Positions 43,397 through 64,000 of a DNA stretch of 64,000 bases are shown in pieces. The position numbers and the translations under genes were made by a program. The stretch covers positions 160,001 to 224,000 of the forward strand of contig CAVTUQ010000007.1 in assembly GCA_963737905.1 (NCBI GenBank), in the 5' to 3' direction. The notes beneath the pieces were generated by a model, which was given only the letters and a program-made list of their open reading frames with translations, did no database searches and was not told the DNA's origin. Source of the DNA: an uncultured delta proteobacterium (GTDB lineage: Bacteria > Desulfobacterota > Binatia > UBA9968). Position 1 is the first letter of the stretch; every line of letters starts with the position of its first letter.

Positions 43397-45131
43397 GTGA
43401 AAATTCACATTCTCTCGGATGAGATGGCGAGCCGCATCGCCGCCGGCGAGGTGGTCGAGCGTCCGGCGTCGGTGGTTAAGGAGCTCATAGAAAATTCCTT
43501 GGATGCCGGTGCGACGGAGATCTCCGTCTCCATTGAAAAGAGTGGCACGGCACTGATTTGCGTGACTGACAACGGTGAAGGCATGGGGTCTGAAGATCTC
43601 GCCCTAGCGGTAGAAAGACACGCGACGAGCAAACTGAGAAACGAAGAGGATCTCTTCCGCATCGCCACTTTGGGATTTAGGGGGGAAGCGTTGCCGAGTA
43701 TCGCCTCCGTTTCAAGGATGGAAATCGTGTCTCGCCTGCCCCTGTCGGAAACGGGATTCCGGATACGGATCGAAGGAGGAAAAAAGGCAGCGCCTTTGGT
43801 GACGGGTTCGCCACCGGGGACGAGTGTTGAGATCAGAGATATTTTTTTCAACACTCCGGCTCGACGCAAGTTTCTCAAATCGCCTGCTACTGAGCTGAGC
43901 CATATTTGTGACGTGTTTAACCGCATGGCGTTAGCCCATCCGGAGGTTCACTTTCGTCTCTCTCATGAGGGCAGGACGATTGCGGATCATGCAGTCGTGA
44001 ACCAGCTCAGCGATCGCTTTTATCAGGTTTTAGGGCGCGAAATCGCAAAGGATTTGATCCCTTTCTCTTGGGTCCGAGGCGATTTGCTTGCCAGCGGATA
44101 CCTAAGCTCTGTGCCGACTTCGTTCCCCAATTCGCGCTATCTTATTACATTTGTTAATCGCCGTTTTGTACGGGACAAGACGTTGACGCACGCGGTGTTG
44201 CAGGGCTATGAGACTTTGCTGATGAAGGGCCAGTATCCTGCGGTGGTCCTCTTTCTGGACATTCCGTCTGCCGAGGTAGACGTTAATGTCCATCCGGCAA
44301 AGTATGAAGTTAAGTTCCGCCGACAGTCGATCGTGCACGAAACGGTTGCCGAGGCCATTCAGCAAAAGCTAAAAGAAAAAGCCAAAGAACCGTCACGAAA
44401 CACATTCCCAACCATGTCCGGGCCGTTTGCCGGGGTGATGGAGGCGCAGCTACCGTATCGACCGTGTCGCAGAGCAAGAAAGGCACCCCGGGACGGATGC
44501 GTTTCCGATTTCCGGCGGCGGACACGCGGAATCGATCCCCAGTGGATTTTTCTCTTCTTTGAGTATCTTGGGCCAGATTCTTGGCTGCTATTTGGTTTGT
44601 TCCTCTCCGCAGGGATTGGCGCTTATCGATCAACATGCCGCCCACGAGCGGGTTTTCTTCGAAAAGTTCCGGCAACAATTGATTGGGGGGAATGTTCAGA
44701 AGCAGAGCCTACTCATCCCGCAAACGATTGAACTAACCGCCGGAGAGCTGATGCTCTTGGAGCAAAAACTTCCGGCCTTGGAGCGGTTGGGATTTCTTCT
44801 GGAGCCGTTCGGTCCTGCTTCCTACGCTATTACTGGAGTCCCGGCGCTTTTGCCGGAAGGTGATTACCGTCCCATCGTGCGACAAATGGTTGCGGAGTTG
44901 GCGGAGGTGGAGAATTCAGAGAAACTACGACAGCATCTGGAAGAGCGACTGGCGAGTATGGCATGCCATAGTGTTATACGGGCCAATCGTAAACTAGAAA
45001 TGCGCGAAATGCAGGCGCTGCTAAGCGAGCTGGATGGAATTGAATTTGCTACCCAATGTCCCCATGGTCGCCCGGTGCTGATCGAATTTGGCCGCGATGA
45101 GCTTGATCGGATGTTTAAGCGCGTGGTGTAG
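43397..45131 (+). CDS. mutL: DNA mismatch repair endonuclease MutL (frameshift in linker, about 44455-44540)
   Basis: IAAGEVVERPASVVKELIENS.DAGA, GFRGEAL, DVNVHP.K; C-terminal DQHAAHER and CPHGRP in the +1 frame. Confidence 0.92.
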
Positions 45132-45141
45132 TCTCTAGGGA

Positions 45142-45220
45142 GTTCTGGTTCAAGGTTCAAAGTTGCGGGTTCGAGGTTCTGAGTATTCACCTTGAACATT
45201 GAACCTTGAACTTTTGAACC
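45142..45220. repeat. Inverted heptamer tandem arrays (GTTCAAR)n ... (TTGAACN)n forming an imperfect hairpin
   Basis: gttctg gttcaag gttcaaa gttgcgg gttcgag gttctga - gtattcacc - ttgaaca ttgaacc ttgaact t ttgaacc, between mutL and miaA. Confidence 0.85.
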
Positions 45221-60576: not shown

Positions 60577-62169
60577 ATGGTACACATAAGATACAGCCGT
60601 TGGGACAGGAACGCGCGGGACTCTCTAGATTCCGAGAGCGTGTTCGATCAGCTCAACGACTACATGAACGACAGTGGCGACCTCCAGCAGGCGATGCGGC
60701 GGCTCATGCAGAAGGGCATCAAACAGGGGGAAAAACAGACCAAAGGAATCGATGATTTGTTGTCTCAAGTGGCGCGGGAAATGCGCAAACTCTACGACGA
60801 GTATCGCCTTCAGTCCGCTATGGACGAAGTGCAGGAGCAACTGGAGTCCATCGTCGATCAGGAGCGCCAGACCCTAGAGGAGTTAGACCAAGCCGGCCAA
60901 AACACCCAGGAACAAAAACAATTTTTGAACAACCTGCCCGGCAAAGTCAGCGAGGCGGTTGAAAAGCTGACTTCTTACCGCTTCGAAAATACCAACGCCG
61001 AGAAAGAGTTCCAACAGCTGCTCATGCAGTTGGAGCAGATCCGCAAGCTGGAAAACTGGCTGCGTCGCGAAGGGAGTCTCTTTCGCGGCCAAACTCCCTT
61101 GCAATTTCAGGAGTCCATGGACCTCATGGAGCGCATGGAGGAGCTGCGGCGTCTGGAAGGCCAGTTATCGAGCATGCAACTGCGCGACGTCGACAAGGAG
61201 CTTTTGGAAAAACTCCTGGGCGCCGATCCGAAGCAGGACTTCGAAGGCGTTATGCGGATGCAATCCTTGCTCGAAGAGGGCGGCTACGTCTTGGAGCAGG
61301 GAGACCGTTTCGAGCTGACTCCGCGCGGCATCCGACGCGTGGGGCAGTTGGCCCTGAGAGATATTTACCAGCAGCTGCGCCGGGACGGCATGGGCAGGCA
61401 TTCGGCTCGCTACCGGGGCAGCCAGGAAATACAGATCGAGAATAGCCGGCCCTATGTCCAAGGGGACGCTCTCCATATCAACATGATTCAAACCCTCAAA
61501 AACGCGCTGCTCAATGGCGGAGGTGTGCCGGTTAGAATTCGTCCCGGAGATTTTGCCGTCTATGATTCCGAGCACACCACTCGCGCCGCCACGGTTCTGC
61601 TTTTGGACATGAGTTGGTCCATGAGCTGGGAAGGGCGTTTCGCCGCGGCGAAAAAAGTGGCATTAGCGATGGAGAGTCTCGTTCGGTCGCTTCACCCGCG
61701 GGACTATTTCGGTATCGTTGGTTTCTTCACCCGTGCCGTGGAGCTGAAGGCAAAGGATCTGCCACAGGCGACCTGGAATATGGGCGATCCGTTTACCAAT
61801 CTCCAGGACGGATTGCACCTGGCTGCCGAGATGTTGGAGCGACGACCGAGCCCGAATCAACAGATGATCGTCATAACGGACGGTCAACCCACCGCTTATT
61901 GCCGCCAGGGGCGGCTTTACTGCGAGTGGCCCCTGAGCTTTGGCGGCATCAGCCAACGCGCCGCCGAGGAAACCTTGAAAGAGGCCGAGCGCATTACCCG
62001 TAAGGGGATCACGATCAACACCTTCATGCTCGACGATAGCCCGGTGCTCCGCGGCTTTGTCGATGATCTCACCCGCATCAACAGAGGCCGCGCCTTCTAC
62101 ACACGACCGGATCGTCTGGGTCAATACTTGCTCATCGACTACCTCTCTCACCAAAAAAAGAAAGTCTAA
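60577..62169 (+). CDS. VWA domain protein with coiled-coil N-terminus
   Basis: MIDAS DMSWSM, TN, ITDGQPTA; partner of the upstream AAA+ ATPase. Confidence 0.87.
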   Translation: MVHIRYSRWDRNARDSLDSESVFDQLNDYMNDSGDLQQAMRRLMQKGIKQGEKQTKGIDDLLSQVAREMRKLYDEYRLQSAMDEVQEQLESIVDQERQTLEELDQAGQNTQEQKQFLNNLPGKVSEAVEKLTSYRFENTNAEKEFQQLLMQLEQIRKLENWLRREGSLFRGQTPLQFQESMDLMERMEELRRLEGQLSSMQLRDVDKELLEKLLGADPKQDFEGVMRMQSLLEEGGYVLEQGDRFELTPRGIRRVGQLALRDIYQQLRRDGMGRHSARYRGSQEIQIENSRPYVQGDALHINMIQTLKNALLNGGGVPVRIRPGDFAVYDSEHTTRAATVLLLDMSWSMSWEGRFAAAKKVALAMESLVRSLHPRDYFGIVGFFTRAVELKAKDLPQATWNMGDPFTNLQDGLHLAAEMLERRPSPNQQMIVITDGQPTAYCRQGRLYCEWPLSFGGISQRAAEETLKEAERITRKGITINTFMLDDSPVLRGFVDDLTRINRGRAFYTRPDRLGQYLLIDYLSHQKKKV

Positions 62170-62187
62170 CGCGCCTAGGGCGCGAGA

Positions 62188-62265
62188 CAGTTCAAAGTTC
62201 AAGGTTCAAAGTTCAAAGTACTCGGAGCCTCTGTCCTTGAACCTGGAACCTTGAACATTGAACTG
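62188..62265. repeat. Inverted heptamer tandem arrays forming a 31-bp hairpin with a 16-nt loop
   Basis: cagttcaaagttcaaggttcaaagttcaaag (62188-62218) pairs with ccttgaacctggaaccttgaacattgaactg (62235-62265); 27/31 Watson-Crick by hand. Confidence 0.9.
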
Positions 62266-62284
62266 GGCGTCGCCCCGGCGCCTA

Positions 62285-62313
62285 TTGACACCTGAAACTA
62301 TTTTCAGTATATA
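62285..62313 (+). promoter_or_regulatory. lexA promoter with palindromic operator in the spacer
   Basis: TTGACA-N17-TATATA. The spacer contains CTGAAA-ctat-TTTCAG (62292-62307). The ATG follows the -10 after a 6-nt gap, with no SD. Confidence 0.75.
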
Positions 62314-62319
62314 GAGCTT

Positions 62320-62928
62320 ATGCTTCCTTCGCTGACTTTTAGGCAAAAAGAAATTTACGATTTCTTGCTCAAGACGATTCGCGAAAAGGGCTTTGCCCCT
62401 TCGATTCCCGAGATCGGCAGACAGTTTAAGATCGCCTCGACCAATGGCGTTTCCGATCACCTCAAGGCCCTGGAAAAAAAAGGTTACATTCGCAGAGTCG
62501 GTAAACGAGCCATCGAGGTTTTATCCGCTGTCGGCAAGCCGGTTCTGACAGCGGTTCGCGACATTCCGATTGTGGGCAGGGTCCCCGCGGGCAAGCCGTT
62601 TCTCAGCGAAGAAAACGTCGAAGGGCTTTTGACGGTCCCCAGCGATATGGGATCGGGAAGACTTTTCGCCCTGCAGGTCAAAGGAGACAGCATGACCGGC
62701 GCCGGCATCCTAAACGGCGACCGGGTGATCGTGAAGCAACAGGGGACCGCGGAGAACGGCGAGATCGTCTGTGCCCTGATCGAGGGGGAAGCGACCTTGA
62801 AGCGTTTCTATAAAAAAGACGGCGCCATAACCCTTAAAGCAGAGAACGAAAAATATGCTCCGATCACCATCTCAGCCGGAGAATTTCGCGTCCTGGGCAA
62901 GGTGGTGGGGTTGATGAGGAAATTCTAA
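62320..62928 (+). CDS. lexA: SOS repressor LexA
   Basis: wHTH LTFRQKEI...STNGVSDHLKALEKKGYI, Ala-Gly cleavage site VPAG, catalytic Ser (GDSM) and Lys (TLKR). Confidence 0.96.
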   Translation: MLPSLTFRQKEIYDFLLKTIREKGFAPSIPEIGRQFKIASTNGVSDHLKALEKKGYIRRVGKRAIEVLSAVGKPVLTAVRDIPIVGRVPAGKPFLSEENVEGLLTVPSDMGSGRLFALQVKGDSMTGAGILNGDRVIVKQQGTAENGEIVCALIEGEATLKRFYKKDGAITLKAENEKYAPITISAGEFRVLGKVVGLMRKF

Positions 62929-62933
62929 AAATA

Positions 62934-62972
62934 GTTCAAAACGTTCAAGCCGTTCAAAACGTTCAAGTCGTT
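62934..62972. repeat. Left arm: 9-mer tandem array (GTTCAARNC)x4
   Basis: gttcaaaac gttcaagcc gttcaaaac gttcaagtc gtt, directly followed by AGGAG RBS. Confidence 0.9.
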
Positions 62973-62985
62973 AGGAGAAAAACCG

Positions 62986-63423
62986 ATGCAAGTAAGAAAC
63001 TTTGAAGATCTGGAAATTTGGAAGGACGCTAGAGCACTAACACGGGAAATCTATCAGCTGACAAGCGATTCTAAATTCTCAAAAGATTTCGCCCTGCGGG
63101 ATCAAGTCCGGCGTGCAGCGGTCTCGATCATGTCAAATATCGCGGAGGGGTTTGAACGAGGAGGCAACCAAGAATTCATTCAGTTTCTCTATGTTGCCAA
63201 AGCGTCTTGCGGTGAAGTTCGCTCTCAACTTTACGTAGCCTTGGATCAATCTTATGTAGCACCTAAAGATTGCGATGATGCCAGCAAGTCTTTTCGGCGT
63301 TTATCAATCATGATCAGCAACTTAATCGATTACTTAAAGCGCAGCGGTCTGAAAGGATCAAAATATACCGCGACAAATCGTCCAAAAAGTCCGACATCTT
63401 TGATTCCCACCGAAACGGCTTGA
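62986..63423 (+). CDS. Four-helix-bundle protein (23S rRNA IVP / Avd-like family)
   Basis: FEDLEIWKDA, DFALRDQVRRAAVSIMSNIAEGFER, EFIQFL..AKASCGEVRSQL. Confidence 0.92.
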   Translation: MQVRNFEDLEIWKDARALTREIYQLTSDSKFSKDFALRDQVRRAAVSIMSNIAEGFERGGNQEFIQFLYVAKASCGEVRSQLYVALDQSYVAPKDCDDASKSFRRLSIMISNLIDYLKRSGLKGSKYTATNRPKSPTSLIPTETA

Positions 63424-63452
63424 ACGGCTTGAACGATTTGAACGTCTTGAAC
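63414..63452. repeat. Right arm: inverted 9-mer tandem array (GNYTTGAAC)x4
   Basis: aac ggcttgaac ggcttgaac gatttgaac gtcttgaac; its reverse complement matches the left arm at 33/39. Confidence 0.9.
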
Positions 63453-63462
63453 ATTCAAGCAG

Positions 63463-64000
63463 ATGTTTTCTTCTACCCCAGAACTCAGACACGATATCGT
63501 CCAGCCGTCGCCCTGGAATCTCGCGGCGATCGCCGGGCGGTTCATCGAGATTTCGGCCTCGGCCAGCGCCGCTTCATTGACTCTCGCCTTTGGTCTCGTT
63601 CGGGAGGCGCAAATACGGGGCGAGCCTGCGGGCTGGGTGACATCGATGGAGAGTTTTTTTTATCCACCCGATGCGGCTTACGGCGGAATTGATCTTGCGG
63701 CACTGGCCGTTGTTCGTGTGCTTCATGCTGTAACCATCCCTCGCGCGGGAGAAAAGCTTTTACGCTCGGGCGGCTTCGGTCTGATCGTGCTCGATCTCGG
63801 AATTGCCGATATTCCTATGCCGCTCCAAAGCCGTCTGACCGGACTGGCCCAACGTTACCATACCGGCTTGGTTTGCCTTACAGAGAAGGAGAGCAAGGCA
63901 TTTTCACTGGGATCATTGGTTTCATTGCGGGCTCATGCCGAACGGCAACGAAGTTCTGACAATCGCTTTACTTGTAGGCTCCGTGTTCTCAAAGACAAGC
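63463..64000 (+). CDS. imuA: ImuA/RecA-like translesion cassette protein (runs off window)
   Basis: Not in ORF track because it has no stop. Manual translation MFSSTPEL...IAGRFIEISASASAASLTLAF...FYPPDAAYGGIDLAALAVVR...LLRSGGFGLIVLDL. RecA fold with degenerate Walker A, downstream of lexA. Confidence 0.78.
   Translation, partial: MFSSTPELRHDIVQPSPWNLAAIAGRFIEISASASAASLTLAFGLVREAQIRGEPAGWVTSMESFFYPPDAAYGGIDLAALAVVRVLHAVTIPRAGEKLLRSGGFGLIVLDLGIADIPMPLQSRLTGLAQRYHTGLVCLTEKESKAFSLGSLVSLRAHAERQRSSDNRFTCRLRVLKDK

Follow-up and report, generated by a model that had tools for sequence, protein, structure and literature searches.

A four-helix-bundle gene between inverted repeat arrays in a Binatia lexA operon: a candidate operon-borne relative of rRNA intervening sequences

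Why should a small protein gene lodged within an SOS operon be enclosed by two arrays of short repeats that are inverted copies of each other? The question is raised by a 519-nt element, here called the cassette, at positions 62934–63452 of a 64,000-nucleotide stretch from an uncultured delta proteobacterium of the Binatia (GenBank assembly GCA_963737905.1, contig CAVTUQ010000007.1, positions 160,001 to 224,000, forward strand). This whole stretch is the window, and its coordinates are used throughout. The cassette can be described as an inverted tandem-repeat arm, a ribosome-binding site (RBS), an open reading frame (ORF) for a four-helix-bundle (4HB) protein and a second, inverted arm, placed in the spacer between lexA and an imuA-like gene. 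The initial annotation of this locus had proposed a compact module that inserts between the genes of an operon and may be cut out of the transcript or bind its own repeats. We judge the chances to be about even that the cassette is a promoterless 4HB gene of the intervening sequence (IVS) type known from rRNA, which would travel on the operon transcript and be set apart by a stem of its own, probably cut by RNase III. This reading draws on the rRNA precedent, the strict sense orientation of the gene, the lack of a promoter or terminator, arms that match in period and length, and a stem conserved in the consensus fold of related cassettes.

Anatomy of the cassette and its protein

All parts of the cassette lie on the forward strand and fill the spacer. 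The left arm (62934–62972) consists of four tandem 9-nt units, GTTCAARNC, followed by GTT. It begins 5 nt after the lexA stop TAA (62926–62928) and directly adjoins the RBS, AGGAG (62973–62977), which lies between the arms, 8 nt 5' of the ATG at 62986. The 4HB gene (62986–63423) encodes 145 amino acids, and its TGA (63421–63423) falls within the first unit of the right arm (63414–63452), which carries four inverted 9-nt units, NNYTTGAAC. Only 10 nt then separate the end of this arm from the imuA-like ATG at 63463. The repeat finder reported the arms as an inverted pair of 39 nt each, 33/39 (85%) complementary and 441 nt apart. Unit counts, margins, complementarity, RBS and the stop codon inside the arm all agreed exactly with the initial annotation.

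The repeats are concentrated far beyond expectation. The window has 14 pairs of GTTCAA motifs separated by 0–4 nt, where 0.07 would be expected and the largest count in 100 shuffles was 1; all 14 fall in three inverted arrays. One is the cassette; the other two, both with 4+4 units of period 7, enclose no gene. The first gene-less hairpin (62188–62265, 20-nt loop, z –5.8) sits between the stop of a VWA gene and the lexA promoter, and the second, a GTTCAA hairpin with a short loop (45147–45220, z –3.4), between the stop of the mutL C-terminal ORF and the miaA ATG. Array hairpins thus make up a family to which the bracketed gene belongs, and no further 4HB gene was found in the window. No Rfam family reached its gathering score anywhere in the window, a search with a gene-less hairpin gave only sub-threshold matches to miRNA-like hairpins, and PADLOC returned no match.

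The cassette also differs from its surroundings in composition. An earlier hand count of guanine plus cytosine (GC), 190 of 420 over 63001–63420, proved correct; this 45.2% compares with 53.7% for lexA, 55.9% for the downstream ORF and 53.3% for the window. A sliding profile ran at 41–48% over 62800–63500 and at 55–62% to either side. Conventional signs of transposition are missing from the window, as had been noted before for a transposase and a target-site duplication: no transposase, RAYT, Y1 transposase, reverse transcriptase or integrase was detected among the 55 ORFs of the window (E ≤ 1e-5), and the 5 nt beside the two arms (AAATA and ATTCA) form no direct repeat that would mark a target-site duplication.

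By profile match, the enclosed ORF is a clear member of the 23S rRNA-intervening sequence protein family PF05635/TIGR02436, scoring 117.7 bits on PF05635 (cut-off 33.8; 105 of the 106 profile positions covered) and 112.4 bits on TIGR02436 (cut-off 24). The protein is homologous to the deposited structures 2gsc (E 3.8e-14 as a single sequence, 2.5e-18 as a profile) and 2rld (E 6.7e-06), each of which was deposited with five chains. Its isoelectric point (pI) is 9.1; the helical core is neutral, and the basic tail at the C terminus carries a conserved S-G-x-K-G-x-K-Y motif. PF05635 is described as resembling Avd, the comparison being between 4DWL and 2GSC (PMC10053308). The relation to Avd that had been asserted for this family rests on that source; our own sequence profile reached no Avd chain at E values up to 10. 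A phage collection gave no tblastn match to the protein at 1e-5.

The ORF is under strong purifying selection, with a ratio of nonsynonymous to synonymous substitution rates (dN/dS) of about 0.05 (0.02–0.07) and dS above 1 in 42 pairs. The window's copy is itself separated from its nearest relatives by dS >1, indicating an old divergence, and the hexamer cores of the arrays persist across depths at which dS exceeds 1.

Recurrence of the arm design among relatives

In the protein search, 7996 of the 8000 candidates scored reached E ≤ 1e-3; the best 120 relatives listed are 77–96% identical to the 4HB protein, and several are named Candidatus Binatia. A scan of species-representative genomes returned 185 coding relatives, the best 80 of which were kept and represent 79 loci (identified below by L numbers). 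The arm score was obtained by local alignment of the 130 nt upstream of an ORF with the reverse complement of its downstream flank. Scores of at least 24 were reached by 63 of 79 4HB ORFs; among the other ORFs in those loci, 12 of 374 did so, the top-scoring of these controls being lexA genes flanked by two gene-less hairpins. The question of whether other family members carry flanking inverted short-period arrays, raised when the element was first noticed, is thus answered in favor of a recurring design.

Periodicity gave a similar picture. A flank was counted as periodic if it lay beyond the 99th percentile of the controls, 328 windows in all; on this basis, 86 4HB ORFs had periodic flanks upstream in 53 cases, downstream in 55 and on both sides in 34. 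The period was equal on the two sides in 32 of these 34 (9/9 in 23, 8/8 in 6 and 7/7 in 3), and cassettes as a whole used periods of 7, 8, 9 or 10 nt. The units themselves differ by group: Binatia have GTTCAA or GTTCCA, anammox bacteria and Nitrospirota have GTTTAAAC-like units, Desulfobulbaceae have CGATTAAA, and Bacteroidota have GGTTYAA or GTTTGAA. Less closely related plasmid copies from cultured bacteria (Nostoc, Aulosira, Calothrix, Geminocystis and Riemerella) follow the same plan: all six fetched, of 21 records found, carry inverted heptamer arrays, with unrelated units (GGGAAAA, AGGAGTC, GGGTGTA and GGTTYAA). Carriers amenable to culture include Nostoc punctiforme PCC 73102, with its pNPUN01 copy (L083), and Salinimicrobium, with a copy in a suf operon (L059 and L063). 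Units vary by protein subfamily, being of the GTTCAA type down to 46% identity and unrelated heptamers at 29–45%. The literature searched contained no description of arrays around PF05635 members outside rRNA, although its coverage was incomplete, with subscription journals mostly uncovered.

Cassettes sit between genes that are transcribed in the same direction. Of 83 cases, 65 had both neighbors co-directional with the 4HB gene; among control triplets, 337 of 541 did (on crude ORF calls). This bears out the earlier statement that the module lies between genes of an operon, and the gaps between the 4HB ORF and its neighbors are mostly taken up by the arms. The host operons are diverse: sufA-like/sufB in six Flavobacteriia loci, sufB/sufC, cas6b/cas1, TumE/cas8b, a dnaE2-like polymerase followed by an integrase, and fba followed by acetyl-CoA hydrolase. 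Within the suf operons of Flavobacteriia and the cas operons (L056, L059, L063, L066, L070, L073, L074, L078 and L080; L025 and L033), the places are conserved, as in the order cas6b-4HB-cas1-4HB, and L073 and L033 hold two copies each.

Among the relatives, 27 loci share the lexA or imuA-like context, always with the 4HB gene on the operon strand. Two sites are used. Site A, between lexA and the imuA-like gene, is filled in 14 loci and in the window, and site B, directly 3' of imuB, holds 15 copies; both are filled in L013 and L032. Presence and site therefore vary among relatives, and the gene is not a fixture of the lexA-imuA junction. Five of the 30 cluster copies look disrupted, sequencing errors being possible in them because the loci are metagenome assemblies.

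At five relatives' junctions, lexA is followed directly by the imuA-like gene with no 4HB gene between. The comparison of filled with empty sites that had been suggested accordingly shows a varying presence of the gene, but most of the "empty" sites are not empty: four of the five (L001, L016, L021 and L040) keep 4+4 inverted units around an 80–113-nt loop, and only L055 is free of arrays. Beyond repeat units, the loops of these four elements contained no detectable remnant of a 4HB gene.

A tree was built from the first 381 nt of 35 intact copies, the five disrupted ones being excluded. The 13 site-A and 12 site-B copies are intermixed on it, and branches with good support require at least four switches of site. 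The window's own copy, though at site A, lies among copies from site B, and L008 (site B) groups with L006 and L007 (site A) at 100/100 support, L006 and L008 being on one contig. An approximately unbiased (AU) test, run after the tree had been seen, rejected grouping the copies of either site into one clade (p 5.7e-10 and 4e-50). Of the mobility first proposed for the module, this documents movement between two sites of the same gene cluster, together with occurrence in other operons, and goes only to that extent. Spread between sites would be explained most simply if filled cassettes and gene-less hairpins recombined through their similar arrays.

Pairing of the arms and the competing explanations

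The fold proposed at the outset was recovered by prediction. The arm duplex has a computed energy of –47.9 kcal/mol, compared with –11.0 ± 3.2 for 300 shuffled right arms. In the predicted fold the long stem appears in both the minimum free energy (MFE) and the centroid structure, where 37 long-range arm pairs have a mean probability of 0.97 and the stem contributes about 26 kcal/mol. A consensus fold of 13 Binatia cassettes retains it with 27 pairs, 5 of which are changed on both sides. Over 37 loci, the real order of units paired better than permuted orders (z 6.7).

Such a stem would act on a transcript that enters from upstream. A simple scan of 62100–63600 gave no promoter-like and no relevant terminator-like site; with none in or beside the cassette, read-through from the lexA promoter is the simplest transcript source. 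In the proposed sequence of events, read-through from this LexA-controlled promoter would transcribe the cassette, the arms would pair in that RNA into a 37–39-bp duplex, and RNase III would cut the duplex by analogy with the 23S rRNA IVS. Cutting would free a monocistronic 4HB mRNA with its RBS and leave lexA on one message and imuA-imuB on another. Since only 10 nt lie between the stem and the imuA-like start, and the 4HB stop is inside the stem, formation of the stem, its cleavage or translation of the 4HB ORF would also set access to that start. The 4HB protein may in turn bind the repeat arms, by analogy with Avd.

The closest precedent is the ORF-bearing 23S IVS of Coxiella burnetii, and of Leptospira as cited in the same source (PMC4990558). 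Comparison with it strengthened the rRNA link beyond what the initial annotation had claimed. The Coxiella IVS is 428 nt long, against 519 nt here, and encodes an S23p/PF05635 ORF. Its inverted repeats form a 28-bp terminal stem (37–39 bp predicted for the cassette), and three tandem heptamers with a degenerate fourth, variable in number among strains, stand just 5' of the ORF, where the cassette has four nonamers. Its GC content is 36% in a genome of 42.5%, so that both elements lie below their host, and both are without a transposase (PMC4990558). RNase III cuts the Coxiella stem in its middle, at mapped positions; for the cassette, this cleavage is argued by analogy. The same source records an older idea that the IVS ORF might serve mobility. 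The cassette differs in lying between protein genes of an mRNA operon, between lexA and the imuA-like gene, rather than in helix 45 or another helix of 16S or 23S rRNA, while the complementary ends forming a long stem are present. It differs further in having arrays on both arms, gene-less versions, and an intact, strongly conserved ORF with its RBS in the loop.

Other known systems fit less closely. Avd belongs to a related four-helix-bundle fold family (PMC10053308), but the Avd of diversity-generating retroelements accompanies a reverse transcriptase, and none of the 55 window ORFs contains a reverse transcriptase domain; the neighbors are a VWA protein, LexA and the imuA-like protein, and no template/variable repeat pair was seen among the ORFs of the window. 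Genes annotated 23S_rRNA_IVP lie inside cas loci and have been treated as candidate cas-associated genes (Zhang et al. 2014, PMC3936711); they resemble the cassettes found here in being interspersed in operons (cas6b-4HB-cas1 and TumE-4HB-cas8b). The cas-locus passage of that paper leaves flanking arrays unmentioned, and the arrays around such copies suggest hitch-hiking, not a CRISPR function. Repetitive extragenic palindromes (REP/REPIN) and palindromes like those of miniature inverted-repeat transposable elements (MITE) share with the gene-less hairpins their multi-copy, intergenic and non-coding nature (three array hairpins per 64 kb, counting the cassette). They differ in that the arms here are tandem arrays of 7–10-nt units, that some copies enclose a conserved gene, and that neither a RAYT or transposase among the window ORFs nor a target duplication accompanies them.

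RNase III processing stems are known between cistrons in the phage T7 early region and in rpsO-pnp. Like the cassette, they place a long duplex between cistrons that would separate the messages of one operon; unlike it, they are not known to enclose a conserved portable ORF or to be built of tandem repeats. Integron cassettes resemble the present element in combining a promoterless small gene with a hairpin-forming element, and an integron integrase adjoins it in 13 related loci. They differ in carrying a single 3' attC instead of arms on both sides of the ORF, the window has no integrase, and the design also occurs in contexts with no integrase seen alongside. The consensus of attC comprises inverse-core and core sites, which the GTTCAAR and YTTGAAC units do not match. 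The cassette is best placed as an operon-borne, array-armed form of the rRNA IVS kind.

Several observations weigh against this placement and the mechanism drawn from it. In Coxiella, cleavage removes the Shine-Dalgarno (SD) sequence and the ORF is decaying, which makes the analogy with an intact, conserved ORF incomplete (PMC4990558). The mismatches in 50 arm pairs comprise 54 of G-U type, 88 of A-C type and 117 others, so that sense-strand wobble is not enriched as selection for an RNA stem would predict; the A-C excess was left uninterpreted because repeated units are not independent. The RNA stem originally envisaged thus folds well, but its mismatch spectrum lacks an RNA-specific tolerance of G-U. 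The purine content of the arms, higher on the left in 27 pairs, on the right in 22 and equal in 7 (11 against 4 among strongly asymmetric pairs), points neither way. The both-sided changes in the consensus stem come mostly from one lineage (L020/L024), and 11 of the 37 permutation-test loci, the window's copy included, show no excess. In the window's arms the score is as good however the units are re-paired, so their complementarity is fully explained by the repeated motif. In addition, most of the relatives' loci are metagenome-assembled genomes, the timing of the AU test tempers its result, and the changes of site could also reflect rearrangement of imuAB around a resident cassette.

Part of the evidence would also fit an explanation in which the arrays are primarily binding sites of the 4HB oligomer, on RNA or DNA, serving autoregulation or a ribonucleoprotein, with the hairpin a by-product and RNase III without a role. 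The unit sequence itself, and not the pairing alone, is conserved while synonymous sites are saturated, and spacer positions in the window's arms pair at chance level, alongside the lack of G-U enrichment. The high pI and conserved basic tail, the five chains of 2gsc and 2rld, and the structural kinship with Avd (PMC10053308), which works with nucleic acid, also speak for a protein that grips its repeats. Units change between protein subfamilies as recognition would have it, though units and proteins would co-vary through shared descent anyway. Equal period and length together with inversion are needed by a hairpin and not by protein sites flanking a gene, and gene-less hairpins with 20-nt loops fold strongly alone. 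On these grounds, we consider binding as the primary role of the arrays unlikely.

Another explanation has the arrays act as DNA, as single-stranded or cruciform hairpins for a recombinase or a replication-linked process (REP/RAYT-like or attC-like) that mobilizes the hairpins and a cargo, the 4HB gene being that cargo or a helper. Gene-less copies at several sites, site changes among relatives, the low GC of the cassette, a G-U test that is neutral or favors no RNA strand, and a same-strand integron integrase just 3' of the cassette in 13 of the 27 related loci are all in keeping with it. However, the 55 window ORFs supply no transposase, RAYT, reverse transcriptase or integrase, and AAATA and ATTCA form no direct repeat. 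The arms flank the ORF rather than forming one 3' site, and GTTCAAR is unlike the attC core. The same design is found within suf and cas operons, in phyla where no integrase was seen alongside, the cassette always has the sense orientation of its host operon, and the loops of gene-less elements hold no detectable gene remnant. We regard a DNA-level role as rather improbable.

That the gene is an ordinary resident of its operon with a role tied to its neighbors, its hairpins generic mRNA stabilizers or insulators free of excision, self-recognition and mobility, is very unlikely: strong purifying selection, long residence (dS >1 to the closest relatives) and a place that is conserved both in the Binatia cluster and in the suf operons of Flavobacteriia speak for it, but the neighbors' functions (SOS, Fe-S assembly, CRISPR) are mutually unrelated, presence and site vary among close relatives with the disrupted copies noted above, and the array design is specific to the 4HB family within the loci.

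The IVS-type reading, recognition of the arms by the protein and a role in DNA are not exclusive of one another. We tentatively entertain, as a doubtful generalization, a so far unrecognized cross-phylum class of promoterless "stem cassettes" with PF05635 cargo and inverted arrays of 7–10-nt units. These would ride operons (the SOS mutasome with integron integrase, suf and cas), be released by RNase III, encode a pentamer that recognizes its own arms, and spread by recombination among gene-less hairpins, with the rRNA IVS, found in 1993, as the special case that came to lie in rRNA.

The SOS cluster and its wider meaning

The upstream cistron, lexA (62320–62928, + strand), scored 205.8 bits on TIGR00498 (cut-off 110.95), confirming its original label. 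The label of the downstream cistron is weaker. The partial ORF at the window edge (63463–64000, + strand) has a RecA-like fold signal and reached 15.6 bits on the ImuA model, below its cut-off of 150; in relatives, the imuA-like gene precedes an IMS-family (ImuB-like) gene. A by-eye alignment of 12 upstream regions placed the likely lexA promoter at 62285–62313 (+ strand; TTGACA, 17 nt, TATATA), which a simple promoter scan misses because its –10 hexamer ends in A. Between its –35 and –10 hexamers lies the palindrome CTGAAACTATTTTCAG (62292–62307). Promoter and palindrome are nearly identical 5' of lexA in 12 related loci, and the palindrome looks like the LexA box of this clade. The remainder of the window is core chromosome, with genes for lipopolysaccharide (LPS), aromatic amino acids, S1 and relA. 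In it, the mutL sequence is broken into two ORFs, overlapping and out of frame with each other, 43397–44731 (N-terminal ATPase and mismatch-repair domains) and 44559–45131 (MutL_C), with a frameshift in the linker at about 44400–44560, which may mark a genuine pseudogene, a gene split in two or an error of assembly.

In 13 of the 27 related loci, an intI gene for an integron integrase (TIGR02249) comes just 3' of the 4HB cassette on the same strand (L001, L002, L005, L006, L008, L011, L012, L013, L015, L017, L021, L055 and L062; for example L006:5482–6576), so that lexA, imuAB and intI form one cluster there. Four intI genes that were scanned scored about 458–468 bits (cut-off 265). Small helix-turn-helix (HTH) or toxin-antitoxin-like ORFs sometimes stand between the cassette and intI, and methyltransferase and RibD_C genes follow intI. 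On the contig shared by L006 and L008 and on that shared by L007 and L051, stretches of about 15 kb and 20 kb (distances from contig ranges) that start with intI split lexA-4HB from imuA-imuB-4HB. These intI-led stretches may be an integron cassette array within the SOS cluster.

Two further sequence features accompany the cluster in relatives. A TTGAAC array of period 9 runs in frame within the imuB-like gene, where it encodes Leu-Asn repeats (L002:4618–4665; likewise in L001, L003, L004, L008, L013, L015, L016, L021, L040 and L051). It lies about 300 nt 5' of the site-B left arm and could pair with that arm. A conserved GGCGGAAGCYT, often after a small hairpin, lies past the right arm and ahead of whichever gene follows, imuA-like or intI (L006:5484, L007:5580, L011:5027, L012:5484, L014:5537, L015:92, L016:2794, L021:1099 and L055:1325); this motif is missing after the window's cassette. 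Four loci raise a question of provenance. L011, L014 and L024 share VWA-lexA-4HB synteny at 80–90% protein identity with Binatia loci, and L005 shares the order imuA-like-4HB-intI (imuA-like 68%, 4HB 92%). By label, the contigs of L005, L011, L014 and L024 belong to Chloroflexota, Limnocylindrales, Udaeobacter and Verrucomicrobiia; transfer seems a less likely cause than mis-binning.

Herein, the short-period arrays and gene-less hairpins emerge as unannotated features that recur in many genomes. The function of rRNA-IVS ORFs has been a question since they were first described, and the conserved architecture of the copies outside rRNA makes it testable. Reports of the 4HB family as CRISPR-associated (PMC3936711; PMC10910872) may reflect hitch-hiking in cas operons. 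If the IVS-type reading is true, the cassette would offer a route by which a gene can live in an operon with little polar damage, which bears on operon evolution, and it would be relevant to the balance of lexA, imuAB and intI messages during the SOS response.

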